Positions 8,944 through 63,091 of a stretch of 64,000 nt of DNA are shown here, piece by piece. The position numbers and the translations under genes were made by a program. Origin of the DNA: Clostridia bacterium (GTDB taxonomy: Bacteria; Bacillota; Clostridia; Peptostreptococcales; JAAYPU01); assembly GCA_016278615.1 (NCBI GenBank), contig JADQBM010000029.1, positions 22,668 to 86,667 of the forward strand, read 5' to 3'. The notes under the pieces are model-generated. The model was not told the origin of the DNA. It did no database searches and saw only the letters and a list, made by a program, of their open reading frames with translations. How positions within the stretch are numbered: position 1 is the first letter of the stretch; every line of letters begins with the position of its first letter.

Positions 8944-8968
8944 TTTCAACACTCCAAACCGTTAACTT

Positions 8969-9164
8969 GAAAGATAATAGATAACAGGTGACAGATAATA
9001 GATGAAAGATAATAGATAATAGTTAAGGTTGGAAATTTGCCATAGCAATTTCCTCATATATTTCTTCAAATTCTTTATAGTATAACTGAAGATTTTGAGT
9101 AACAAAATCATCCACAACTGTTATCTATTATCTGTTATCTATTATCTATCCCTAATCTCTGATC
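8969..9164 (-). repeat. HATH element copy A (heptamer-armed twin-hairpin palindrome), prs|pth spacer
   Basis: Left arm 8969-9028 (AANAGAT heptamers ending AGTTAAGG). Hairpins GGAAATTTGC/AGCAATTTCC (9031-9053) and GATTTTG-agtaa-CAAAATC (9091-9109). Right arm 9113-9164 (TTATCTN heptamers). Strand is orientation relative to copy G. Confidence 0.9.
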
Positions 9165-9174
9165 TTTGTTTTAC

Positions 9175-9199
9175 GGACAACCGCAAGGGTTGTCCCTAC
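9175..9199 (-). repeat. GC-rich TGTAG-hairpin mini-motif embedded in the outer arm of HATH-A
   Basis: The minus strand reads GTAGGGACAACC-cttgc-GGTTGTCC. Arm-like sequence (CTATCTATTGCTATC, carrying the prs stop) resumes on the far side. Confidence 0.7.
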
Positions 9200-9205
9200 G
9201 CATCC

Positions 9206-10162
9206 CTATCTATTGCTATCGAACAATTTGCTCACTGAATCATTGGTATAAATACGGCTTATGGCTTCAGCGAAAATAGGCGCTACAGATAGAACCCTTA
9301 TCTTGTCCATAATCTTACTCTTATTTAGAGGTATTGTATTTAAGACCACCAACTCATCAATAACAGAATCTTGAATTCTACTAATGGCAGGGCCTGAAAG
9401 AACTGGATGGGTGGCACAAGCATATACCTTTTTTGCGCCCAGTTCTTTTAATGACTTGGCACTGTTTGTTATGGTTCCTGCTGTATCAATCATATCATCC
9501 ACTAAGATAACATTCTTATTCTTTATCTCTCCAATAACATTCATGACTTCTGCAACATTTGCTTTTGGCCTTCTTTTATCAACGATCGCTATGGGTGCAT
9601 CAAGGTAATTAGCAAAATTTCTAGCTCTTGTAACACTTCCAATATCTGGGGAAACAACAACAATATCCTCCAACTGAAGATCGCAGAAATATTTGACTAA
9701 AATAGGAACACCCAACAAATGATCTACTGGTATGTCAAAATAGCCTTGGATCTGAGAAGCATGCAAGTCCATGCTTAAGACTCTATTGGCTCCTGAACTT
9801 GTAATAAGATTCGCTACAAGCTTAGAGGTAATGGGATCTCTTGCCTTTGTTTTCCTATCTTGTCTTGCATACCCATAATATGGCATAACTGCTGTAATTC
9901 GTCCGGCTGAAGCCCTTTTCATAGCATCCGTCATGATTAAAAGCTCCATGAGATTATTGTTAACAGGCTCACACGTGGATTGAATGATGTAGACATCTGC
10001 CCCTCTAACGGTCTCATTTATATCAACAGATATCTCTCCATCACTAAAAACGCCAACTGAGGAATTACCCAATTCCTTGCCCATGCATAATGCAATTTCC
10101 TTAGCAAGTTCTTTGTTTGAATTCCCTGTAAATACTTTAATTTCTCGACCAAGATTTCTCAT
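9206..10162 (-). CDS. prs: Ribose-phosphate pyrophosphokinase
   Basis: [11 protein letters not shown] and PRPP loop [13 protein letters not shown]; 318 aa. Confidence 0.95.
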
Positions 10163-10175
10163 TTGTCAATCTCCT

Positions 10176-11549
10176 TCATTCTCTGCTTAGTTTTTTTCTA
10201 TCCACCCAACCCTTAATATGTTTTTGTTTCTCTCTTCCGATACATAATGTGCCTTCTGGCACCTCCACTGTAACGGTGGTTCCAGCAGCCACATACCCTC
10301 TTTTATGAACTTTCAAAGGTGCAACGAGGTTCACATTGCTTCCAATAAAAGCATTGTCCTCGACAATTATTTTTTGCTTCTCTTTTCCATTATAATTGAC
10401 AAAAACAACGCCGCACCCAATATTGACGTTTTTTCCTACTTCAGCATCCCCCACATAGGCCAAATGTGAAGCCTTTGTTCCATCTCCAATAATTGAATTT
10501 TTTATCTCAACAAAATCTCCAATTTTAACATTTTTCCCAATACAACTCCCGGGCCTTAAATAGGCAAAAGGACCTATGGTCGTCCCTTGTTTAACGCTAC
10601 TGTCAATTAGAACTGAATTCTGAATCTGAACATGATCCTCTATGGTTGAGTTTTCTATTCTGCTGTTACTCCCAACCATACAATTCTCTCCGATTACAGT
10701 ATTCCCCTTAATGATCACACCAGGATATATGATTGTATCCATTCCAATGGATACTCCAGAATCTACATATGCATGCTCTGGATTAATAAAAGTTACCCCT
10801 TGATCCATATGCTTTTCCACGATTCGTTTGCGCATAATCCCTTCAGCCTCAGCGAGTTGCCTTCTTGAATTAACCCCTAGTATTTCTTCCGTATTTAAAA
10901 GGCTATAAGTTCCTAATGCATACCCATTCTGAACACCTATTTCAATTAAGTCTGTCAGATAATATTCTCCCTGAACATTATTGGGACAAATTTCTGAAAG
11001 GTGCTTCTTCAATAAATCTCCACGAAAACAATAAACACCTGAATTTATTTCTTTGATTAAGCGTTCTTGATCCTCTGCATCTTTTTCTTCTACAATCTTA
11101 ATAAGCTTCCCATCTGATTCCTTTACAATTCTACCATATCCAAAAGGGTTTTCAACCATTGCCGTAAGAACTGTCATGTCTAAATGGTTGTCTTCATGAA
11201 ATGCCATTAAAGAAATGATGGTTTCCCGTTGAATGAGGGGCATATCACCACACAAAACAATTACATGCCCCTCCTCAGGAATATTTTTTTCTGCCATAAG
11301 TACTGCGTGCCCGGTTCCCATTCGTTTTTCCTGAAAAACAAATTGCAAATTAAAATCCTTCAGACTACTTTCAACTTCTTGTGAACCCTCTCCAATGACT
11401 GCTGTAATATCTTCTACATTTGAAGCTTTTACTTCTTCAAGAACCCGCTCAATCATACTCTTTCCACATATTTTATGCAAAACTTTTGGGAGTCTTGATT
11501 TCATACGGGTACCTGCTCCCGCAGCTAATACAATCGCACTATTTGCCAT
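10176..11549 (-). CDS. glmU: Bifunctional UDP-GlcNAc pyrophosphorylase / GlcN-1-P acetyltransferase
   Basis: N-terminal LAAGAGTRMKS nucleotidyltransferase motif and C-terminal left-handed beta-helix hexapeptide repeats; 457 aa. Confidence 0.95.
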   Translation of the reverse strand: MANSAIVLAAGAGTRMKSRLPKVLHKICGKSMIERVLEEVKASNVEDITAVIGEGSQEVESSLKDFNLQFVFQEKRMGTGHAVLMAEKNIPEEGHVIVLCGDMPLIQRETIISLMAFHEDNHLDMTVLTAMVENPFGYGRIVKESDGKLIKIVEEKDAEDQERLIKEINSGVYCFRGDLLKKHLSEICPNNVQGEYYLTDLIEIGVQNGYALGTYSLLNTEEILGVNSRRQLAEAEGIMRKRIVEKHMDQGVTFINPEHAYVDSGVSIGMDTIIYPGVIIKGNTVIGENCMVGSNSRIENSTIEDHVQIQNSVLIDSSVKQGTTIGPFAYLRPGSCIGKNVKIGDFVEIKNSIIGDGTKASHLAYVGDAEVGKNVNIGCGVVFVNYNGKEKQKIIVEDNAFIGSNVNLVAPLKVHKRGYVAAGTTVTVEVPEGTLCIGREKQKHIKGWVDRKKLSRE

Positions 11550-13213: not shown

Positions 13214-14614
13214 ATGAATTGCGATCAAGAAGCAAAATATTATCACTGTATTGGAATAGGCGGCATCGGGCTTAGTGCAATAGCGGAAATCTTATTAGCC
13301 AAAGGTTATAAAGTATCGGGTTCCGATATAAAAGAATCTGATATCACTCAATCTTTGGAAAACCATGGCGCTACTATTTACATAGGACATGATGAATCCA
13401 ATATTTCAAATTGTGACACTGTCATTTATACCTCAGCAGTATCAGATGACAATCCTGAATTAATATCAGCTAGAAAAAAGAATATTCCTACTTTATCTCG
13501 TGCTGAAATGCTGGGTCAAATTATGAAGGATTATTCTCACAATATCGCTGTTTCTGGAACTCATGGAAAAACAACAACGACTTCTATGGTCTCGCTAATA
13601 TTGGAAGATGGCCATTTTGATCCTACTATTTTAGTAGGTGGAAAATTAGATAAAATTGGGGGAAATGTTAAAATTGGAAAAGGTCCTTTTTTAATAACGG
13701 AAGCCTGTGAATATATGGATAGTTTCTTAGAACTAAATCCAAAAATAGAAATCATCCTAAATATTGATTCAGATCATTTGGATTACTTTAAAGACATTGA
13801 TCACATCGTAAGTTCTTTCCAGAAATTTGCGAATTTAGTCCCTATAGATGGTTTAATTGTGGCTTATAGTGCCAATGCTTTTGTGAAAAGTATCATCCAT
13901 AATGTATCTTGTAAGACCGTTACTTTTGGTTTTGATGATAGCTGTGACTACTACGCAAACCATATAGAATTCAACTCTGAAGGAATGCCTCTATTTGATG
14001 TATATTATTCTGGCGAAAAATTATGTGCCATACAACTGCTGGTTCCTGGAGAACATAATATTAGCAATTCTCTTGCAGCCATTGCATGTTGCCATACTTT
14101 AGGGGTCTCTATAGACGTAATTGTTAAAACCCTTGAAAGCTTTGAAGGGACTAAAAGAAGATTTGATATCATAGGCATTACGCCAGATCTTTTAAAGGTA
14201 GTGGATGATTATGCACATCATCCAGAAGAAATCAAAGCAACGCTGAGCGCCTGTAAAAATGTCCCCCATAAAAAATTATGGTGTGTCTTCCAGCCCCATA
14301 CTTATACAAGAACAAAAGCTCTTTTCGAGGAATTTACAGATGCTTTTGATTTTGCGGATGGTATTATTATTACAGATATTTATGCCGCCAGAGAAAAAAA
14401 TATCTATAAAATAAAAGCATCAGACTTAATCGATGAAATTAAAAAGAAACATCCTAATAAAAAAGATATTTATTATATCTCAGATTTCGAAGATATCGCA
14501 GATTTTATAATAGAAAAAACCAACCCAAAAGATCTTGTCATAACCATGGGTGCTGGGGATGTTTATAAGGTAGCAGAGCGGATTATGGAGAAGACGAAAA
14601 CAACCGAGAACTGA
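13214..14614 (+). CDS. murC: UDP-N-acetylmuramate--L-alanine ligase
   Basis: GIGGIGLSAIAE Rossmann motif and P-loop GTHGKTTTTSM, with Mur ligase middle and C-terminal domains. The last codons and stop lie in the outer heptamers of HATH-B. Confidence 0.95.
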   Translation: MNCDQEAKYYHCIGIGGIGLSAIAEILLAKGYKVSGSDIKESDITQSLENHGATIYIGHDESNISNCDTVIYTSAVSDDNPELISARKKNIPTLSRAEMLGQIMKDYSHNIAVSGTHGKTTTTSMVSLILEDGHFDPTILVGGKLDKIGGNVKIGKGPFLITEACEYMDSFLELNPKIEIILNIDSDHLDYFKDIDHIVSSFQKFANLVPIDGLIVAYSANAFVKSIIHNVSCKTVTFGFDDSCDYYANHIEFNSEGMPLFDVYYSGEKLCAIQLLVPGEHNISNSLAAIACCHTLGVSIDVIVKTLESFEGTKRRFDIIGITPDLLKVVDDYAHHPEEIKATLSACKNVPHKKLWCVFQPHTYTRTKALFEEFTDAFDFADGIIITDIYAAREKNIYKIKASDLIDEIKKKHPNKKDIYYISDFEDIADFIIEKTNPKDLVITMGAGDVYKVAERIMEKTKTTEN

Positions 14615-14786
14615 GAACTGGAAACTTAAAACTGAGAGATAATAGATAAGAGATAATAGATAACAGTTAAGGAAGGCTTTTGCGTAGAATACGCAAAAGC
14701 CCTCTTTTTTATCTGATGAAAGTTTTGTTATACAAAACTATCCTCAACTCTTATCTATTATCTGTTATCTTTTATCTCTCACTTAT
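14606..14786 (-). repeat. HATH element copy B, murC|amidohydrolase convergent spacer
   Basis: Ten in-phase heptamers at 14606-14672, starting inside the murC 3' end. Hairpins GGCTTTTGCGTA-gaa-TACGCAAAAGCC (14675-14701) and AGTTTTG-ttata-CAAAACT (14721-14739). Right arm 14740-14786. Confidence 0.9.
14675..14710 (+). terminator. murC terminator formed by the first mini-hairpin of HATH-B
   Basis: 12-bp perfect stem GGCTTTTGCGTA/TACGCAAAAGCC followed by CTCTTTTTT. Confidence 0.75.
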
Positions 14787-15970: not shown

Positions 15971-16294
15971 TAAGGATATAAGATAAGAGATAATAGATAA
16001 TAGATAATAATTATGGATGATTTTGTTTCACAAAATCTAGATTGTCTCATAATCTGTCCTGAATTATTACCAAGATTTAATCTTTAGTATCAATAAAAAT
16101 GAAGATTCTGGAACAAAATCCACCTCAACTCTTGAAGCCCTAGCTCAAATCTTCGATTTGATGTGCAGGTGTCATACAAGTGGAACTTTCTAATCTATGA
16201 TTAGTTAAAGTTGCCATTCGCTCTGTGGAAACTCTCCAATCTTTGATTGGTAAGAGTTTTTCAGTTATCTGTTATCTATTATCTATCTCTAACC
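15971..16294 (+). repeat. HATH element copy C (long variant with nested module), HAD|amidohydrolase spacer
   Basis: Left arm 15971-16016. GATTTTG-tttca-CAAAATC (16018-16036). Second degenerate GATTCTG-gaa-CAAAATC (16104-16120). Nested module 16131-16263. Right arm 16264-16294. Confidence 0.85.
16131..16263 (+). repeat. Nested hairpin module (long form) inside HATH-C
   Basis: CTTGAAGCCCTAGCTCAAATCttcGATTTGA..CATACAA, then two related hairpins (AACTTTCTAATCtatGATTAGTTAAAGTT and AAACTCTCCAATCtttGATTGGTAAGAGTTT), ending GTTTTTCAG. It sits between the junction and the right arm. Confidence 0.8.
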
Positions 16295-16305
16295 TCTCCT
16301 CTATT

Positions 16306-16953
16306 CTATCTTTCTAAAATCTTAATAATATCTTCCACCTTCTCTATGACATAATCAGGACTTTCTATCATGTACTCCTCTGCTGAAAGCTCGCTCCATG
16401 CGACAATGGCTGATTGAACGCCAGCATTTTGAGCGCACTTAATATCAAACAAGCTATCGCCTATCATTAAAGTTTGTTCAGGTTTACTCTGTAGCTTTTT
16501 TAGAGCCATGTTTATGGGTTCTGGGTCCGGCTTATGTTTTTTGGTATCATCTGCTGTAATAATACATTGAAAGTATTCCATTAAGTGATACTTTTCCAAA
16601 CCTCTAATAGATGTATTTCTTAGCCTTGATGTTACAACACCCAACTTATAGCCTTTGTTAAATAAGCTGATGACAGCCTCTGCCATACCCGGAAAAATTT
16701 CAATCAGGTTTTCGAAACTCTCGTGATGAAAACTTCTATAAATTTGTATTGCCTCTTCAACGGGAACATTAAATTCTCTTTTCATGGTAAGCGCAAGTGG
16801 CTCACCAAAAGATTTAACGATATATTCCCGATCCTTTTCTATACCTGATACCGTTCTATAAGTATGTTGAAAGGATTGTACAATAAGATTATTGGTATCA
16901 AGAACCGTTCCATCCAAATCAAAAAGTATGGTATCTATCTTCACCTTTGCCAC
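16306..16953 (-). CDS. HAD-IA family phosphatase (PpaX/phosphoglycolate phosphatase-like)
   Basis: Motif I FDLDGTVLDT and motif IV GDSLFD; 215 aa. Confidence 0.75.
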   Translation of the reverse strand: MAKVKIDTILFDLDGTVLDTNNLIVQSFQHTYRTVSGIEKDREYIVKSFGEPLALTMKREFNVPVEEAIQIYRSFHHESFENLIEIFPGMAEAVISLFNKGYKLGVVTSRLRNTSIRGLEKYHLMEYFQCIITADDTKKHKPDPEPINMALKKLQSKPEQTLMIGDSLFDIKCAQNAGVQSAIVAWSELSAEEYMIESPDYVIEKVEDIIKILER

Positions 16954-24403: not shown

Positions 24404-24445
24404 AGCGCACTCCTGCATCAAATAATGGATTTATTATTTTATATG

Positions 24446-24466
24446 GCGGGAGACCCGCCCCTACAA
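24446..24466 (-). repeat. GC-rich TGTAG-hairpin mini-motif next to HATH-D
   Basis: The minus strand reads TGTAGGGGCGGG-tct-CCCGCC. Confidence 0.7.
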
Positions 24467-24490
24467 ATACTTTTCAGATGACATAATGAG

Positions 24491-24632
24491 AATTTTGTGT
24501 AACAAAATATCCTTAATTATTGAAGACCTAACTCAAATCTATGATTTGAAATGTAGGTCTCATACAGAAACTCTTCAATCTTTGATTGGCTAAGAGTTTT
24601 TCAGTTAATTGTTAATTCTTAATTCTTCATTG
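24491..24632 (-). repeat. HATH element copy D (partial: one hairpin, nested module, TTAATTN arm; no left arm), ahcY|mtaD spacer
   Basis: ATTTTG-tgtaa-CAAAAT (24492-24508). Junction CCTTAATTA. Module 24520-24603. Four TTAATTN heptamers at 24605-24632, ending 8 nt from the ahcY stop. Confidence 0.75.
24520..24603 (+). repeat. Nested hairpin module (short form) inside HATH-D
   Basis: TTGAAGACCTAACTCAAATCtatGATTTGAAATGTAGGTCTCATACAG, then AAACTCTTCAATCtttGATTGGCTAAGAGTTTTTCAG. The ends are colinear with the C module, and one hairpin unit is missing. Confidence 0.8.
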
Positions 24633-28283: not shown

Positions 28284-28790
28284 GGAAATCGAAATTTAAG
28301 TTTAAGCTTGAGTTAAGTAGCTTTATGTTTATTTTAATCATTTTTTTCTGTTTCATTGATTATTTTTTGAAAAATATATAAACTAAGTGATGTGATAAAA
28401 AATGGAAATTGAAGTTTAAGTGTAAGTTTAAGTAAAAATGTGGAAGCTTAAGTGTAAGTTCAAGTGAAAAGTGGAAGTATAAGTGTAAGTCATGTAGGGG
28501 CTGGTCCTGTGCCTGCCCGAAGTAAGTAGGAGTGAAAGTGAAAGTTTAAGTTTAAGTATAAGCGAAAAGTTTGTAGGGGCTGGTTCCTGTGCCTGCCCGA
28601 AGTAAGTAGGAATGGTGGAAGTGTAAGTGTAAGTAAAAGTGGAAGTTTGAGTTTGTAGGGGGCTGGTCCTGTGCCTGCCCGACAAAGAGAAGCTGGAGTC
28701 TAAGTTTATGTGGAAATATAAGTATAAGCGGATTTACACTTAACACTACAACTCTAAGTGTTGTTCAACTATACTTATACTTCATAATAT
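28284..28790. repeat. AAGTNN-hexamer repeat region with three ~80-nt tandem units and a terminal mini-palindrome (HATH-related variant J)
   Basis: Two tracts both start GGAAAT(C/T)GAA(A/G)TTTAAGT (28284, 28404). Three units of hexamer tract plus a 38-39-nt GC motif start at 28493, 28572 and 28654. Terminal inverted arms GAAATATAAGTATAAG (28713-28728) and CTATACTTATACTTC (28769-28783) surround the hairpin ACACTTA/TAAGTGT. Confidence 0.85.
28493..28682 (+). repeat. Three copies of the GC-rich TGTAG-hairpin motif in region J
   Basis: TGTAGGGGCTGGTCCTGTGCCTGCCCGAAGTAAGTAGG at 28493-28530 and 28572-28610 (one extra T); truncated copy at 28654-28682. Stem GGGC(T)GG/CC(T)GCCC. Confidence 0.85.
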
Positions 28791-34571: not shown

Positions 34572-34600
34572 GCATTTCTCCCCTTCAACTAAGCTATTTT

Positions 34601-34738
34601 TAGATAACAGATAATAGATAACAGTTAAGGTGAGTTTTGCTATGCAAAACTTAATCTTAATTTATAATAGATGAAATTTTGCTCATGCAAAATATTCCTA
34701 AACTATTATCTGTTATCTGTTATCTATTATCTTTATGG
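34601..34738 (-). repeat. HATH element copy E, fabZ|pgm spacer
   Basis: Left arm 34601-34630. AGTTTTGC-tat-GCAAAACT (34633-34651). ATTTTGC-tcat-GCAAAAT (34676-34693). Right arm 34705-34738, ending 3 nt from the fabZ stop. Confidence 0.9.
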
Positions 34739-37669: not shown

Positions 37670-37695
37670 AATACTTAGTTTAATAGTCCATTGGA

Positions 37696-37866
37696 AAACA
37701 ACGCGAGATTATACATGATTAGGTATAAGCCGAAGCGGAAATCATAAGGAAGGTCATGTCCTTGTGAGAAACTGACAGGCAAAAGAAACGTTGTTTGATG
37801 GAACTCTGGAGATACTGTATATAAACAGAGCCAACGAGGAAATAACCAACAGGCAAAAAGACAGAG
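37696..37866 (+). promoter_or_regulatory. Tandem glycine riboswitch (two aptamers)
   Basis: Aptamer 1: P1 AAACAACG (37696-37703) pairs with CGTTGTTT (37789-37796); internal GCCGAAGCGGAAA; a 9-bp P3b hairpin; CTGACAGGCAAAAGAAA. Aptamer 2: ACTCTGGAGA..GCCAACGAGGAAA..CAACAGGCAAAAAGACAGAG, with P1 CTCTG/CAGAG (37804-37808/37862-37866). These match the glycine-aptamer signatures CUCUGGAGAG, CACCGAAGGGGCAA and CUCAGGCAAAAGGACAG. Confidence 0.8.
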
Positions 37867-37909
37867 GAGTATAATGACGCTTTTATTAGCGTTGCTATAT
37901 TCTTTTTTT
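37866..37909 (+). terminator. Expression-platform intrinsic terminator of the glycine riboswitch
   Basis: GGAGTATA-atg-ACGC [ttttatta] GCGT-tgc-TATATTCT followed by TTTTTT. Its 5' strand starts at the last base of aptamer-2 P1. Confidence 0.6.
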
Positions 37910-37992: not shown

Positions 37993-39330
37993 ATGAAAAT
38001 GTTATTAGTTGGAGCTGGTGGTGTTGGTGAATCTATACTTAAAATATTAAAGGTTCGAGATCCAAATGGCTCATGGCTGAAAAAAGTTATTGTTTCAGAC
38101 TATGATTTAAAACGTGCAGAAGAAGTTGTCAATCACTTAGGAGAAGATTCCAGATTCATTGCAGAAAAAGTCAATGCAAAAGATATTAATGCAATCATTG
38201 ATCTCATAAAAAAACATGAATGTGACTTCGTTATGGATGCAGCTGCACCTTTCGTTTCCAATAATATCTTTGATGCTGCTTTTTTAGGAAATGCGAATTA
38301 TGCTAATATGGGAACTTGGTCGGTCCCTTTAGAAAAGCCAAAGTACGGTTATGGTCTTGAAAACAACTTTAGTGAATCTATGGCAGCATATAATTTCGAC
38401 CAGCATGAAGAGTGGCAAAAAAAAGGTATTATGGCTTGTATTTGCTTAGGCATTGATCCCGGAGTCGTGGATGTATTTGGAAGATTTGCGGCAGAGTATC
38501 TTTTTGATGAAATCCACGAAATCCATGTAAAGGACGGCGGAAATCTTCGAATTCCAGGAACTGGTGATTATGATATTGCCTTTGGTTTTAATGTTTGGAC
38601 CGTTTTAGATGAGGTTTTAAATCCTAATGTGGAATGGAGTAAAGATAAAGGCTTCTTCATAGAACCTGCTTTCGCAGGACAAGAAACGTTCCAACTACCT
38701 GTAAGTGTTGGTTCAAATACAATGGTAAAGGTTGAACATGAAGAAACTGTTCTTATGCCTCGGTTCTTACAAAAATATGGTCTGAAGAAATGTAGCTTTA
38801 AAATTAGTCTAGATGATAGCTTGGTTAATGCACTTAAAGTCATTGATGGTTTAGGACTCCGAAGTCTTGAAGATGTAGATGTGGGGGGTGTAAAAGTTAG
38901 ACCAAGAGATGTTGTTGCTGCAGTTGCACCACAACCTAAGGATCTGGGCAGTGAAATGATAGGGAAAATGGTAGTAGGCATACATTGTATTGGAATTAAA
39001 AATGGCATGAAGCGTGAAATCTTTATGTATCAGCCTTTTGATAATCAAGAATCCATGGAAAAGTGGGGCATGCAAGCAGTGGTTGCTCAAACTGGTTTTG
39101 GTGCTGCCATTGGAATCGAAATGATTGGAAGAGACTTCTGGAAAGATGCGGGTGTATACAGTCCCGAGTACTTCAATCCCATCCCCTACCTTGAAATTAT
39201 GGATGAGTCCGATTTTGAATACGGCATCGTTGAAATGGATTCAGAATATAAAGCAAAACAAGATAAAGAAACAATGGCAGAAATATTTGAGAAAGCAAAA
39301 ATGAAAAACGTAATGAACAATGAAAAATGA
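37993..39330 (+). CDS. Saccharopine dehydrogenase-family NAD(P)-binding oxidoreductase
   Basis: N-terminal Rossmann motif MLLVGAGGVGESI; 445 aa with family-typical length and layout. Preceded by a glycine riboswitch. The last codons lie in the HATH-F arm. Confidence 0.75.
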   Translation: MKMLLVGAGGVGESILKILKVRDPNGSWLKKVIVSDYDLKRAEEVVNHLGEDSRFIAEKVNAKDINAIIDLIKKHECDFVMDAAAPFVSNNIFDAAFLGNANYANMGTWSVPLEKPKYGYGLENNFSESMAAYNFDQHEEWQKKGIMACICLGIDPGVVDVFGRFAAEYLFDEIHEIHVKDGGNLRIPGTGDYDIAFGFNVWTVLDEVLNPNVEWSKDKGFFIEPAFAGQETFQLPVSVGSNTMVKVEHEETVLMPRFLQKYGLKKCSFKISLDDSLVNALKVIDGLGLRSLEDVDVGGVKVRPRDVVAAVAPQPKDLGSEMIGKMVVGIHCIGIKNGMKREIFMYQPFDNQESMEKWGMQAVVAQTGFGAAIGIEMIGRDFWKDAGVYSPEYFNPIPYLEIMDESDFEYGIVEMDSEYKAKQDKETMAEIFEKAKMKNVMNNEK

Positions 39331-39507
39331 ATAATGAACAGTGAGTAATGAATAATGAACAATGAATAATGAATAATGGAGGTTGGTTTTGCTTTTAGCA
39401 AAACCTTCTTTTATAAATGCAAGCTTTTGGAACAAAAGCCTCCATAATTATTCATTATTCATTATTCATTATTCATTGTTCATTGTTAATTGTTCATTGT
39501 TAATATT
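39310..39507 (-). repeat. HATH element copy F (ANAATGA/TCATTNT arm flavour), saccharopine-DH|lrgB convergent spacer
   Basis: Ten in-phase ANAATGA heptamers at 39310-39379, including the CDS stop TGA at 39328-39330. GGTTTTGC-tttta-GCAAAACC (39385-39405). GCTTTTG-gaa-CAAAAGC (39423-39439). Nine in-phase TCATTNT-type heptamers at 39445-39507. Confidence 0.9.
39385..39414 (+). terminator. Terminator of the saccharopine-DH-family gene formed by a HATH-F mini-hairpin
   Basis: GGTTTTGC-tttta-GCAAAACC followed by TTCTTTTAT. Confidence 0.6.
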
Positions 39508-48107: not shown

Positions 48108-48300
48108 CAGATAAAAGATAATGAAAAGAAAAAAGAGATAAGAGATAACAGATAATAGATAACAGTTATGGAGGATTTTGATTCTCAAAATCTTCATTTT
48201 ATTTTAATAGAATTGCTAGTTTTGCCTAAGCAAAACTTACCTTAACTATTATCTGTTATCTGTTATCTCTTATCTTTCTTTAACCTATTATCTCTTATCT
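48108..48300 (+). repeat. HATH element copy G (reference orientation), hydA|trmB convergent spacer
   Basis: Left arm 48108-48171. GATTTTG-attct-CAAAATC (48174-48192). AGTTTTGC-ctaa-GCAAAACT (48218-48237). ACCTTAACT junction. Right arm to 48300, containing the trmB stop codon. Confidence 0.9.
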
Positions 48301-48950: not shown

Positions 48951-49126
48951 AGAATTAGAGATGTGAGATAATAGATGAAAGATAATAGTTAATAGTTAAG
49001 GTGAGTTTTGCTTAGGCAAAACTACAATTTGAATAAAATATAATGGAGATTTTGAGTATCAAAATCATCCTAAACTATTATCTGTTATCTCTTATCTGTT
49101 ATCTGTTATCCATTTATCTTACTAAG
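48951..49126 (-). repeat. HATH element copy H, nrdG|trmB spacer; close inverted copy of G
   Basis: Left arm 48951-49001. AGTTTTGC-ttag-GCAAAACT (49004-49023). GATTTTG-agtat-CAAAATC (49048-49066). Right arm 49077-49126. The reverse complement aligns with G through arms and core. Confidence 0.9.
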
Positions 49127-52772: not shown

Positions 52773-52901
52773 TTAGATAATAGATAAATAGATAATAGTT
52801 GTGGTAGGATTTTGTTGCACAAAATCTTCATTATAAGATGAAAGTTTTGCGTGCAAAACTATCCGTAACTGTTATCTCTTATCTATTATCTCTTATCTTT
52901 G
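52773..52901 (+). repeat. HATH element copy I, DUF4015-like|L,D-transpeptidase spacer
   Basis: Left arm 52773-52804. GATTTTG-ttgca-CAAAATC (52808-52826). AGTTTTGC-gt-GCAAAACT (52843-52860). Right arm 52871-52901. Confidence 0.9.
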
Positions 52902-55929: not shown

Positions 55930-56826
55930 TGTAATTCTTTAGCAATAGGTGCTATGGTGGCTTTTGCTGAAGCCATTAATGAAAGCGGCTATGAACCTGA
56001 TAGAACGATTGTCTTTTGCGCTTTTGACTCTGAAGAATTTGGTGCAATGGATGTAGGTACAGATTGGTTGGTTGGATCTTGGAATCTATTAAAAGAGAAG
56101 AGTGATGATTGAGCGGCATACGGATCCTGAAGTAACTGAAACCTTCTATCATTCTCAGTTTGATACCGAAGAAAGAGCTTCTATTGATAAATATAAAGAG
56201 TGTTTATCAACTTATGGAAGCTTGTTGATTAAAATCGTCTGATTACTAAGCTATTGGACGAGGCCCTTTCTTCAGGCAAGGATCTCAGCACTGTAGAGAG
56301 CTTAATTGCTGATTATAATCAAGGTCAAAGGGATGCTGCAAAAACAATCATTATGGGTACTCAATACTTAGACGTTGAATCAGTTGCTTATCAAGCACAT
56401 TACTATGCAAACCTTCCTCAAATGTTTGATACAGCCATAAGCGCATTAAATGATGGCGACGCAGCAGCAGCCATTTCTGCATTAAAGCTTAGTGGCAAAT
56501 ATTATTCAGAGTTTCTTGATAAAGAAACTTGGTACAAAACCTATCAAGACAGTATTGTTTTAGATGCTCCAGATAGAGAAATTCTCTGGGCAAAAGGCAG
56601 AAAGTTAAAAGCTTATGATCATTATGATTTATTTGAAAGCTTAAGAGCAAAAGCTGAAAATGGAAGAACTGACTTTGCTGATGAAATAGAGACACTTCAA
56701 ACCTTTAAAGTAGATGCTTTACAAAGAGTCGCATCAAGTTATGCATCGGATAAAGCTGTTTTTGAGAAAGCATCAAAAGAGCTTCCTTTAACCCTCGCCG
56801 ATGAATTGATTGAAGCCCTTAAATAA
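55930..56826 (+). pseudogene. Decayed M28B (PA/transferrin-receptor-like) peptidase gene: 5'-truncated, two frame breaks, internal deletion
   Basis: Three fragments in three frames. 55942-56112: AIGAMVAFAEAINESGYEPDRTIVFCAFDSEEFGAMDVGTDW, the M28 metal-ligand region. 56114-56242: ETFYHSQFDTEE, matching the YHS..ET motif of GCPII-type enzymes. 56254-56826: a helical TFR-dimer-like tail. No N-terminal half is present. Confidence 0.65.
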
Positions 56827-56827
56827 A
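56785..56827 (+). repeat. 43-nt direct repeat, left copy (3' end of the M28B pseudogene)
   Basis: CCTTTAACCCTCGCCGATGAATTGATTGAAGCCCTTAAATAAA. It matches the right copy at 63049-63091 at 41 of 43 positions. Confidence 0.9.
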
Positions 56828-57118: not shown

Positions 57119-60100
57119 ATGATGTGCATGAATTGGAAATATTCTAAATCGATAAGCATGACTCTAATTTTCATGATGGTTTTTTCATTATTAATTACTA
57201 TCAGCTATGGTGAGGACTTAAATCAATCTGTAGATTTAGCCCAAAATGATGGACCACAAAACATCGAAGAAGTAAATATGAGCGATATTAGTAACCATTG
57301 GGGATATGAAGCAATATCCAAATGGGTGGATAAAAATCTGATTTCAGGATATCCTGACGGGACATTTAAACCAGACGGCAAAATTACAAGAGCAGAGTTG
57401 TTAACTTTAATAAATAGACTATATGGGTTTTATGAAACATCAGATAAAAACTATAGTGATGTAGCTGAGGATGATTGGTACTATGATGAAGTAAGCATTG
57501 CGAAGAAAAATATGTATTTAGATTGGTACAAAGAAAAAGCGTTTTATCCCAATAAAAAAATCACTAGACAAGAAGCATGTGCAATCTTATCAGCTATAAA
57601 CAACTTGGATTTATTGCAGGAATCAGCATCTATGCAGGCTTATTCAGATTATGCTAGCATTCCGGAGTGGAGCAGAGAATATATAGATGCAGTTGTTAGT
57701 AAAGGATACATAAAAGGCTATGAAGATAAAACTTTAAGACCAGAAGGAGAGATCACCAGAGCAGAGGCGGTCACAATGCTGGATAGGGTTATAGGAAAAT
57801 TGATCAATAAAGAAGGAACGTATGGTCCTGAAGAAGGACAACAAATTATTGAGAGTAATCTTACAATAAACAGTAAAGATGTTATATTACAAAACACTAT
57901 CGTAAAAGGAGATTTAATACTTGCTGCTGGAGTCAAAGAAGGAAATGTTGATTTGCAAAATGTCATTGTTGAAGGTAAAACTATTATAAATGGTGGCGGA
58001 GAAAATTCAATTACATTTGACAGCAGTGTTCTAGGAGAAATCATTGTCTTTAAAGTCAATGGAATGATTCGAGTGGTATCAAAAGATAGTGAAATAGGTA
58101 GATCAATACTAAAGTCCGGAGGGAAGTTGGAAGGACAATTTAATGATTCTAAAATTGAGATACTAGGTGATGGGCAAAAAATAGAATTGGATGGAGATTT
58201 TGATGAGATAAAGGTTGAAGCGGAAATAACAATAGAAGTTACAAATGATACAACAGTGAATGTTCTAGAAATCGCAAAAAATGGTAATGGGACACAAATT
58301 GATATTGAGAAGAATGCACAAGTTAGGGAGATTATATTTAATGAATCTGCAATAGTAACAGGTAAAGGAAATGTAATTATTGCTAAGATAAATGCAGATG
58401 AAGTTACTATGGAACAACAAGTTGAACAGAAAATAGTACAAAGTGGAGTTGACGGCAGCGGCGTAAAGGAAAAAACAAAAAGTACTGGTTCTTTTGGTGG
58501 CACTTCTAGGGATAATACCGCACCAACGCCAGGAAATAACGGAAACATTGATATAGAGTGTAGAACACAATCAGCTATACTAAGTTGGGTAGAAGCAACA
58601 GATAATAAAACGGATCAGAATGAATTAGAATATTTAGTTTATTATTCTGAAAATGACAATATAGATACAGTATCCGACATAGAATTAAACGGAGATGCTA
58701 TTGGAACTTATGAGGCTGATATAAGAACAAAATCAGCTATAGGGCTCACTTCTGATACAACATACTATTTCAATGTCATAGTAAAAGACGAATCAGGAAA
58801 TAAAAGCTCATATGAAAGCATTTATGCAAAGACGGATGCACTGGAAGATATGACTACACCAACTGTTAACACATATTTTCCGGTAGCTGATGCAAATGAC
58901 ATAGCAGCAGACAGCGATTTAGCACTAGAATTTAATGAAACTGTAGTAAAAGGAATCGGAAATATTACAGTCAAAAAATCAGATAATACTACAGTAGAAA
59001 CGATCAATGTCACATCAAGTGCTGTGACAATCAATTCTGATGAAGTAACCATTAATCTATCTAGCAATTTAGAATATGGAACAGGGTATTATATCTATAT
59101 TGATGCAGGTGCGTTTTTAGATTTGTCAGGAAATCAATATGCAGGTATAGATGATGCGACAGTCTGGAACTTTACTATAGAAACTGCGCCAGATACAGGT
59201 CCACCAACTGTGAACACATATTTCCCAGCTGATAATGCAAATGACATAGCAACAGACAGCGATTTAGTAGTAGAATTTAATGAAACTGTAGTAAAAGGAA
59301 TCGGAAATATTACAGTCAAAAAATCAGATAATACTACAGTAGAAACGATCAATGTCACATCAAGTGCTGTGACAATCAATTCTGATGAAGTAACCATTAA
59401 TCTATCTAGCAATTTAGAATATGGAACAGGATACTATATCCTTTTAAATGCAGGCGCATTTTTAGATTTATCAGGGAATACGTATGCAGGTATAGACGAT
59501 AGTGTAACATGGAATTTTACAGTTGTATCTTCAAAAGAAATGACAGGGGAAGGAACAAGTGATAATCCGTTTATTATTAACAGCATTGAAGATTTGGTAC
59601 TTGTAGGTAGTGGTGTGAATAGCGATGGCAATGATTATAGCTTTTCAGCATACTATGAATTAGGACGTGACCTAGACTTTGAAGCAACTGGAAGTTATGA
59701 ATCAGAAACTGTAAATACTTCCCTTACTAAAGCAGGTGGTGGCTCAGGCTTCACGCCTATAGGAAGTAATAGTGACGCATTCAATGGTTCTTTTGACGGC
59801 AAAGGTTATGTAATTTCCAACCTATATATGAATACATATAAATCAGGAGAAGTAAACTATGCTGCCTTATTTGGATATGTTATTAATGGGCAAATAAAGA
59901 ACTTGGGAATCGTAGATGCTGATATAACTGCAAGCGCATACAATCATAATCCTATATCAAGTATATTAGCTGGAGCTAATATTGGAGGGACTATCACAAA
60001 TTGCTATGTAACTGGTAATTCTAACGCTGTACGAACAGGTACAAGTGGAAGTAGCTATGCTAGTGGATTGATCGGTTCAAATGATGGTAGCATTACAAAC

Positions 60101-62909: not shown

Positions 62910-63048
62910 CCAACCTTATCTATATCTCGTAATAATATCATTCTTTATTTACTTGAAATTTCCTCTAATTACTTTTAACTATTATAACAAGATTGTAGAT
63001 TTACGTAAAGCGAAAGTGATAGCAAAATAAATTTGATCAGAAAAACTA

Positions 63049-63091
63049 CCTTTGACCCTAGCCGATGAATTGATTGAAGCCCTTAAATAAA
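63049..63091 (+). repeat. 43-nt direct repeat, right copy (orphan gene 3' end)
   Basis: CCTTTGACCCTAGCCGATGAATTGATTGAAGCCCTTAAATAAA, followed by a 15-bp GC-rich terminator. Confidence 0.9.

Follow-up and report, generated by a model that had tools for sequence, protein, structure and literature searches.

Short hairpins built on a TTTTG/CAAAA stem recur in the spacers of the window, a stretch of 64,000 nucleotides from a Clostridia bacterium. What are these hairpins part of, and what keeps them? An earlier note, made from the letters of the window, listed 17 of them and held that structure rather than sequence is conserved. All 17 mini-hairpins were found to be present as listed; they are 17–27 nt long and all of them are intergenic in the 64 kb. 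The host is a spore-forming member of the Clostridia (SpoIIID, SpoVT, and an [FeFe] hydrogenase are encoded), and its closest named relative is a metagenome-assembled genome labelled Anaerovorax odorimutans (TrmB 71% identical). The genes of the window are all housekeeping genes, and no transposase, nuclease or recombinase was found among them.

The Mini-Hairpins Are the Tips of a Palindromic Intergenic Repeat

The mini-hairpins form the stem-loops at the two tips of a palindromic intergenic repeat and are parts of a larger structure rather than stand-alone units. Nine of these non-coding elements, approximately 125–325 bp long (190 bp for the one with the hairpins at 48174–48237), were identified in the window (Table 1). 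They are lettered A, B, C, D, E, G, H, I, and J, with G–J corresponding to F–I of the earlier note. Each half-site has an array of 7-nt units in tandem, followed in turn by a T(T/A)NNGG box, a linker of 2–5 nt, the hairpin, and an AT-rich spacer. The box is present in all half-sites, the linkers 5' of the stems read ATGA, ATAG, TGAG, AGGA, TAAG or AATA, the stem of the hairpin has 7–12 bp with T4/A4 at its base, and TTCAT often opens the spacer. The inverted arms of the elements are 76–89% complementary. As two half-sites are opposed, a single strand is predicted to form a T or Y in which array and box make up the stem and the two mini-hairpins the caps. For element H (48128–48282) the predicted folding energy was -64.5 kcal/mol as RNA (z -12.8) and -38.2 kcal/mol as DNA (z -10.6), and the T/Y fold was seen again in B, E, G, H, and I.

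Table 1. Positions of the elements, their parts, and the GTAGGG hairpins in the window.
Feature	Position	Details
Element A	8966–9150	Hairpins 9031–9053 GGAAATTTGC/AGCAATTTCC (degenerate) and 9091–9109 GATTTTG/CAAAATC
Element B	14630–14785	Hairpins 14675–14701 GGCTTTTGCGTA/TACGCAAAAGCC and 14721–14739 AGTTTTG/CAAAACT
Element C, long variant	15975–16300	Hairpins 16019–16037 and 16104–16120 (degenerate GATTCTG/CAAAATC)
Element D, one half-site	24480–24632	Hairpin 24492–24508 ATTTTG/CAAAAT; array of GTTAATT units
Element E	34600–34736	Hairpins 34633–34651 AGTTTTGC/GCAAAACT and 34676–34693 ATTTTGC/GCAAAAT
Element G, AATGAAN arms	39310–39505	Hairpins 39385–39405 GGTTTTGC/GCAAAACC and 39423–39439 GCTTTTG/CAAAAGC
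Element H, left arm, AGATAAN array	48109–48163	Four clean units 48136–48163, degenerate ones before; TRF period 7, 7.9 copies
Element H, left box AGTTATGG	48164–48171	Pairs with box 48240–48247
Element H, mini-hairpin H1	48174–48192	GATTTTG-ATTCT-CAAAATC; -6.4 kcal/mol as DNA, z -4.0; R1 65.4 bits
Element H, AT-rich inter-hairpin spacer	48193–48217	TTCAT first
Element H, mini-hairpin H2	48218–48237	AGTTTTGC-CTAA-GCAAAACT; -7.1 kcal/mol, z -4.2; R1 39.1 bits, minus strand
Element H, right box and inverted array	48240–48300	Box CCTTAACT 48240–48247, then (NTTATCT)n
Element I, inverted relative to H	48955–49115	Hairpins 49004–49023 AGTTTTGC/GCAAAACT and 49048–49066 GATTTTG/CAAAATC
Element J	52774–52900	Hairpins 52808–52826 GATTTTG/CAAAATC and 52843–52860 AGTTTTGC/GCAAAACT
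GTAGGG hairpin, minus strand	9170–9199	
GTAGGG hairpin, minus strand	24440–24464	
GTAGGG hairpins, plus strand	28494–28520, 28573–28600, 28655–28682	

Taken individually, 16 of the 17 mini-hairpins gave the predicted fold; the exception (16104–16120) is degenerate (z -0.1). Each stem carries its T-run 5' and its A-run 3' on both strands, and the mini-hairpins are therefore not terminators; a T-rich tail, as an intrinsic terminator would have, was found only at B1 and, weakly, at H1. The stem-end positions differ between the two hairpins of every complete element. With two hairpins unlike at their stem ends, cross-pairing should be disfavoured and the T/Y favoured, although the copies that suggest this are not independent. 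The element reads alike on both strands, and a comparison of sense and antisense folding, taken as a test of selection at the RNA level, gave no advantage to the sense strand; in elements I and J the antisense strand folded better by 8–11 kcal/mol.

Of 19 period-7 arrays in the window, 18 belong to elements. The units were AGATAAN, AATGAAN, AATTAAC, GATTTAG, GGTCTMW, and TCATAGA in the window and its relatives, and AGTGAAC, AGAGGTT, and GTAGTTG in other genomes. Hence the 7-nt period is constant while the unit sequence is free; the same unit is usually, not always, found in both arms of one element.

Elements were found in 6 of 30 tandem, 3 of 8 convergent, and none of 8 divergent spacers, a bias which is not significant alone. 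H and I lie in opposite orientations on one replichore, and I has the nrdG terminator on one side and the trmB ribosome-binding site on the other. The trmB stop codon (48295–48297, minus strand) falls inside the outermost heptamer of H, and ORF 37993–39330 terminates within the array of G (39311–39330). Five AACTGAG units (14602–14637) adjoin the left arm of B. Elements C and D have in common an extra module of approximately 95–125 nt with two hairpins between array and box (16125–16260 and 24515–24600), which was missing from the orthologous spacers of relative L167 and gave no Rfam match.

Pairing at the Stem Ends

The TTTTG-N3-12-CAAAA pattern occurs 23 times in the window compared to 6.0 ± 2.8 times in shuffled sequence. 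Fifteen of these sites lie within elements and the remaining eight correspond to the chance level; thus 15 of the 17 mini-hairpins have the exact TTTTG...CAAAA. In these 15 the base immediately 5' of TTTTG (position -1) pairs with its partner 3' of CAAAA in 15/15 cases, position -2 in 13/15, and position -3 in 2/15. The drop at -3 indicates that the stem has a defined end. The eight TTTTG/CAAAA hairpins outside elements pair at these positions in 4/8, 2/8, and 2/8 cases, respectively. Counted over -1 and -2, 28 of 30 stem-end cells are paired, whereas shuffling of the 3' flanks gave a mean of 12.5 and none of 20,000 shuffles reached 28. The flanks are of the types GA/TC (five hairpins), AG/CT (five), GC/GC (two), GG/CC (one), and AA/TA (two). 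The proposal that the two bases 5' of TTTTG change together with their partners is therefore correct at -1 and for all types at -2 except AA/TA, where an A.A mismatch is found. The loops are variable and 3–11 nt long, in agreement with the claim that they are free.

A MAFFT alignment of all 17 half-sites put the 3' stems out of register. We therefore used a half-site covariance model, R1, built from eight half-sites of equal loop length. In the window R1 matched exactly the 17 half-sites and nothing else, and it found no copy in approximately 680 kb of unrelated gut Clostridia loci. In the resulting alignment of the window copies 99.2% of the cells were paired, a percentage that is inflated because covariance-model alignments are fitted to the structure, five of eight pairs had changed on both sides, and the covariation score was reached by 0 of 500 shuffles.

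The earlier note spoke of compensatory change in many independent copies. This overstates what the window holds: 10 of the 17 hairpins represent two stem variants, GATTTTG (GA...TC) and AGTTTTGC (AG...CT), which leaves only about three independent compensatory events in the window. It is the other genomes that give compensatory change its real support.

Conservation of Orthologous Elements

A relative with a 76% identical TrmB (L161) was found to carry elements at both the H and the I sites. At 4-fold degenerate sites the window and L161 are identical in 387 of 674 positions (57%) and differ in 287 (43%). In the hairpin stems of H and I, none of 60 positions differed. The boxes had changed in 2 of 32 positions, while the linkers (3/8), the loops (6/19; 32%), and the spacers (11/50) had changed more often. 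The difference between stems and 4-fold sites was significant (p = 2.5e-14), as was that between stems and loops, spacers, and linkers combined (p = 3e-6). The orthologous arrays differ in length by 14 and approximately 21–22 nt, which equals whole units.

These comparisons of aligned sequence show purifying selection on stems and boxes in place, and short-patch gene conversion among copies could partly explain the identity. The orthologous copies are closer to each other than to copies in the same genome, which argues for vertical descent under constraint, and as the stems are preserved by evolution the fold is real. The statement that structure rather than sequence is conserved needs amending accordingly: the structure is conserved, but between orthologues the stems are also invariant in sequence. 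A metagenome scan with TrmB gave relatives of at most 54% identity, too distant for further comparison of orthologues.

Turnover at Individual Sites

Deeper divergence could be followed at site B, the amidohydrolase–murC spacer. Besides the window, four of five relatives examined (amidohydrolases 75–85% identical) have an element there; the fifth, L180, had only a long terminator-like hairpin. In the window the arms consist of AGATAAN units, the first stem is AGTTTTG/CAAAACT and the second GGCTTTTGCGTA/TACGCAAAAGCC. L179 has the same unit with GTTTTAT/ATAAAAC and GGCTTTTGC/GCAAAAGCC, L171 has AATGAAT and AATTAAN units with GATTTTC/GAAAATC and AATTTTGC/GCAAAATT, and L169 has GATTTAG units with GGATTCTTCGC/GCGAAGAATC and again AATTTTGC/GCAAAATT. 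L167 has a remnant only, with one long hairpin (AAAGTTTTGTATATTT...) and no second stem. The top pair of the T-run is G:C, A:T or C:G depending on the species, and the stem-end pairs swap with compensation. Over this deeper divergence the site shows other complementary sequences taking the place of the stems.

Presence at a site also varies. L162 has no element at site I, and L167 has two right-arm units only at site A (16690–16715) and the mini-palindrome AGATAAC-AAACTC-ATTATCT only at site D (1185–1215). These remnants resemble footprints of a deleted hairpin core, or else seeds from which a new element could grow. Comparison of filled and empty sites (the window against L162, L167, and L171) revealed no clean boundary and no target-site duplication. 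At site C, L167 has no hairpin but only some nine TCATAGA/TCATAAA units in a direct array (9925–9985), which lies just upstream of the ribosome-binding site.

Related Elements in Other Genomes

A scan of representative genomes for AGATAANAGATAANAGTTNNGG gave at least 79 loci. The loci listed cover many Clostridia, i.e., Ruminococcus, Acutalibacteraceae, Oscillospiraceae, Dysosmobacter, Anaerocaecibacter muris, and Tissierellales. Some are from bins labelled Bacteroidales, Chitinophagaceae or Patescibacteria, where the label rests on metagenomic binning; at least one locus, L054, which is nearly identical to L058, looks mis-binned. In the 79 listed loci a hairpin was found within 8 nt of the box in 47 of 86 array-plus-box sites compared to 2 of 86 after shuffling, and an inverted arm within 260 nt in 21 of the 86. 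The 35 copies that R1 recovered from other genomes were paired in 98.8% of cells, again a model-fitted and thus inflated percentage, with six of eight pairs changed on both sides. Together with the paired cells in the window, the turnover at site B, and the unchanged stems of H and I, this bears out the central claim that the stem ends covary and that a hairpin is maintained.

The TTTTG/CAAAA core is less general than was suggested. Although fixed in nearly all copies in the window and recognizable in Anaerocaecibacter muris (TTTTGC/GCAAAA), it is replaced by GC-rich stems in Ruminococcus and Dysosmobacter (GAAACGC/GCGTTTT, GCGGGC/GCCCGC, and TGTCCGGC/GCCGGACA). The stems thus differ by genome while the position of the hairpin is kept, from which we conclude that a core of TTTTG is particular to this lineage.

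In viral contigs, seven matches to box plus TTTTG were chance matches with neither arrays nor hairpins, and array plus box matched once. With matches so few or due to chance, phages are not an evident carrier.

Five loci from Bacteroidales and Prevotellaceae bins (L009, L013, L021, L061, and L070) have an AGATAAN array that runs straight into a start codon (AGTTATGG...), with no hairpin; this matches the placement reported for TAACTGA repeats.

Comparison with Known Repeats

The elements resemble the REPs, BIMEs, and REPINs, known mainly from Proteobacteria, in several respects. Those are imperfect palindromes of 17–33 nt that occur in many copies outside genes and downstream of them; BIMEs (Y and Z REPs) and REPINs are inverted pairs of two palindrome types with a linker between them; compensatory changes conserve their structure, and their presence varies among relatives. 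The elements described here differ by their AT-rich stems with a T4/A4 base, the flanking 7-nt arrays, the T(T/A)NNGG box, and the Clostridia host. The GTAG/CGTC tag of REPs was not conserved at the hairpins, with GTAG occurring once only (J1), and no RAYT turned up among the genes of the window or when 1.55 Mb of loci were searched by tblastn with two Y1 transposase sequences as queries. The hairpin-binding enzyme genes that the earlier note had suggested looking for thus gave no match there. Firmicutes are not mentioned in a survey of REPs (PMC3733652). The window does hold a second class of hairpins, GTAGGG plus a GC-rich stem-loop, in five copies similar to canonical GTAG-tagged REPs (Table 1). 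Three of them, at 28.4–28.7 kb, are set apart by period-6 arrays, (AAGTNN)n, and L162 has a hairpin of this type (approximately 10660–10700) where the window has element H.

Similarity was also found to Correia/NEMIS elements of Neisseria and to ERIC, RUP, and BOX, which are non-coding, 100–200 bp long, and have long inverted arms that fold when transcribed. Like Correia elements and MITEs, the elements may be located between genes that are transcribed together, and promoter-like or processing sites could be part of them. The general description of a MITE, terminal inverted repeats on a non-coding sequence of under 300 bp, fits them. However, their arms are variable tandem arrays rather than a fixed terminal inverted repeat, there are two internal mini-hairpins, and no parent insertion sequence with the ends of the element was seen. 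They do not fit the description of the IS200/IS605-derived PATEs, which have hairpins near their ends but no terminal inverted repeats, insert 3' of a fixed target of 4–5 nt, and show a strand bias; the elements have long inverted arms, no fixed flanking motif was found, and H and I are opposite in orientation.

Intergenic TAACTGA arrays have a scattered distribution in Beggiatoaceae, Cyanobacteria, and Bacteroidetes, with an unknown mechanism (PMC4679880). As in these and in cyanobacterial STRRs, which often lie directly before a start codon or a ribosome-binding site, the arrays here are intergenic tandem repeats of 7-nt units, and the AACTGAG array beside element B is close to TAACTGA. TAACTGA arrays and STRRs are reported as direct arrays alone, whereas the arrays here form inverted pairs bounded by box and hairpins. 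In the literature on heptamer arrays, REP/RAYT, and MITEs we found no description of the element, the only relevant sources being MacGregor (2015) and the REP survey; matches to literal array strings were ClosTron primers. At the gathering threshold Rfam gave only a glycine riboswitch elsewhere in the window, and at E ≤ 10 only chance matches to miRNA and snoRNA models.

A number of known motifs were compared and rejected. The polarity of the box (5'-GTTAAGG ... CCTTAAC-3', on both strands) is opposite to that of integron attC sites (5'-RYYYAAC ... GTTRRRY-3'). By eye, the CodY box was dropped for its wrong spacing and a CsrA-binding or Shine-Dalgarno-like reading of GGA in the box was considered and dropped. 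Fur GATAAT arrays have a period of 6 and their unit is not conserved here; DnaA boxes have only TTATC in common with the arrays. HutP-type NAG-N4 sites fit AGATAAN but not the other units, and a HutP-family gene was found only in the relative locus L162. Tiny ORFs starting from the TTG were not conserved.

Origin and Function of the Elements

Based on these observations we consider it about as probable as a coin toss (roughly 0.5) that the mini-hairpins belong to a REP/BIME-like structured repeat of an apparently undescribed family. The hairpins would be recognized single-stranded, by their shape and the T4/A4 base, and the folded module would be kept for a host role in spacers downstream of genes. 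For that role an RNA option may be favoured (approximately 45%), in which the structure in the transcript would serve 3'-end or intercistronic protection, processing or insulation. A single-stranded DNA option, with spread or resolution through a structure-specific enzyme, could account for approximately 35%, and something else for 20%. As a family, the elements were probably dispersed as mobile DNA of a non-autonomous kind, and the arrays would change in length by slippage in 7-nt steps. The REP/BIME-like reading does not account for a period that stays at 7 nt while the unit is free.

The elements could instead be purely selfish mobile DNA, comparable to a REPIN or PATE and without a function for the host, whose hairpins are the sites on single-stranded DNA that are bound and cleaved by an IS200/IS605- or RAYT-type transposase (HUH, Y1) encoded elsewhere in the genome. 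Small palindromes in inverted pairs, extragenic and in high copy number, are what this would give; presence at the same sites varies among relatives, and canonical GTAG-tagged, GC-rich REP-like hairpins occur in the same genome. The origins of HUH enzymes made of iterons and a hairpin also place short tandem repeats beside a hairpin. However, inactive selfish copies should decay, and the stems are invariant where neutral positions differ by 43%. The missing tag, the lack of a conserved flanking target, the mixed orientation of H and I, and the failure to find a Y1 gene in the loci searched also argue against it. As the array unit varies among the elements of one genome, several specificities would have to be assumed. 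We therefore regard purely selfish DNA as unlikely, if worth keeping in mind.

The fixed period is addressed by a bolder and distinctly improbable proposal. Here, the half-site would be the recognition module of a structure-specific protein or enzyme system of many Clostridia, and perhaps of other phyla, the T/Y would be processed like a viral inverted terminal repeat, and the arrays would be made or bound by that system. Binding of one subunit per 7 nt, or production of the arrays, would explain why the period is fixed and the unit free. The inverted terminal repeat of adeno-associated virus is likewise T-shaped, with a long stem containing short tandem repeats and two different internal palindromes. 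In the virus, however, this repeat lies at the end of a linear genome, where it acts as the replication origin and has a defined nick site and a Rep protein, whereas the elements are chromosomal and dispersed with variable loops and no Rep known, so that the resemblance is one of shape only.

It is quite improbable that the elements are a mutational by-product, in which quasi-palindrome template switching keeps the stems perfect, slippage at the stalled hairpin grows the arrays, and the covariation reflects templating. The whole-unit differences between orthologous arrays, the use of mostly one unit in both arms although units vary among elements, and the footprint-like remnants in L167 are in agreement with such an origin, and heptanucleotide repeats are described, in work cited in PMC4679880, as the commonest long-unit repeats in prokaryotes. 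Templating does give pairing, but it does not give unchanged stems beside 32–38% change in loops and linkers, and the conserved box, the stem end at -2, and the common architecture across many families are left unaccounted for.

We also considered a portable promoter, with the TTG of TTTTG as the -35 and a -10 in the spacer 16–18 nt downstream, driving the gene past the opposite arm. Hexamers resembling a -10 do face the gene at A2 TACTAT (17), E2 TATAAA (18), I2 TATTTT (16), and J2 TATAAT (15–16), and element I, flanked by a terminator and the trmB ribosome-binding site, has a suitable location. A scan gave seven sites compared to 6.1 ± 2.4 in shuffles, however, and only 7–8 of the 17 half-sites fit, TANNNT being common in AT-rich DNA. 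The -10 at the I site lacks its final T in L161, three elements lie between convergent genes, and a promoter would give no reason for the stem to have a complementary 3' half, which makes this reading very unlikely. A double-stranded operator, i.e., TTTTG...CAAAA as the inverted-repeat site of a dimeric DNA-binding protein, is suggested by the palindromic motif with its conserved T4/A4 core and by its resemblance to the CodY box AATTTTCWGAAAATT, but is hardly credible since the distance between half-motifs (3–11 nt) and the stem length (7–12 bp) vary, the stems at orthologous sites have quite different sequences, and approximately one element per 7 kb beside unrelated housekeeping genes ill suits a regulon.

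If the elements are a REP/BIME-like repeat, the structured repeats of this type would extend to Clostridia. Intergenic heptamer arrays, a known oddity, are now tied to a conserved box and to hairpins under measurable purifying selection. What was a loose observation on arrays becomes a defined module with testable predictions on binding partners, transcript processing, and array dynamics, and experiments are possible since a cultured species, Anaerocaecibacter muris, has related copies. The elements could affect how neighbouring housekeeping genes are expressed. They also break short-read assemblies: the Logan contig with ORF 37993–39330 (L001) breaks off at element G.

Other Features of the Window

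The glycine-GGAnGA riboswitch (37688–37868; 144 bits) is located upstream of a saccharopine-dehydrogenase-like gene that is missing from the syntenic region of relative L163. The gene for a 1379-aa SLH/Big_5 surface protein contains a tandem duplication of 345 nt (58846–59490; 90% identity). A direct repeat of 56 nt (89% identity) was found at the 3' end of an ORF (56772–56827) and again in a spacer 6 kb away (63036–63091).
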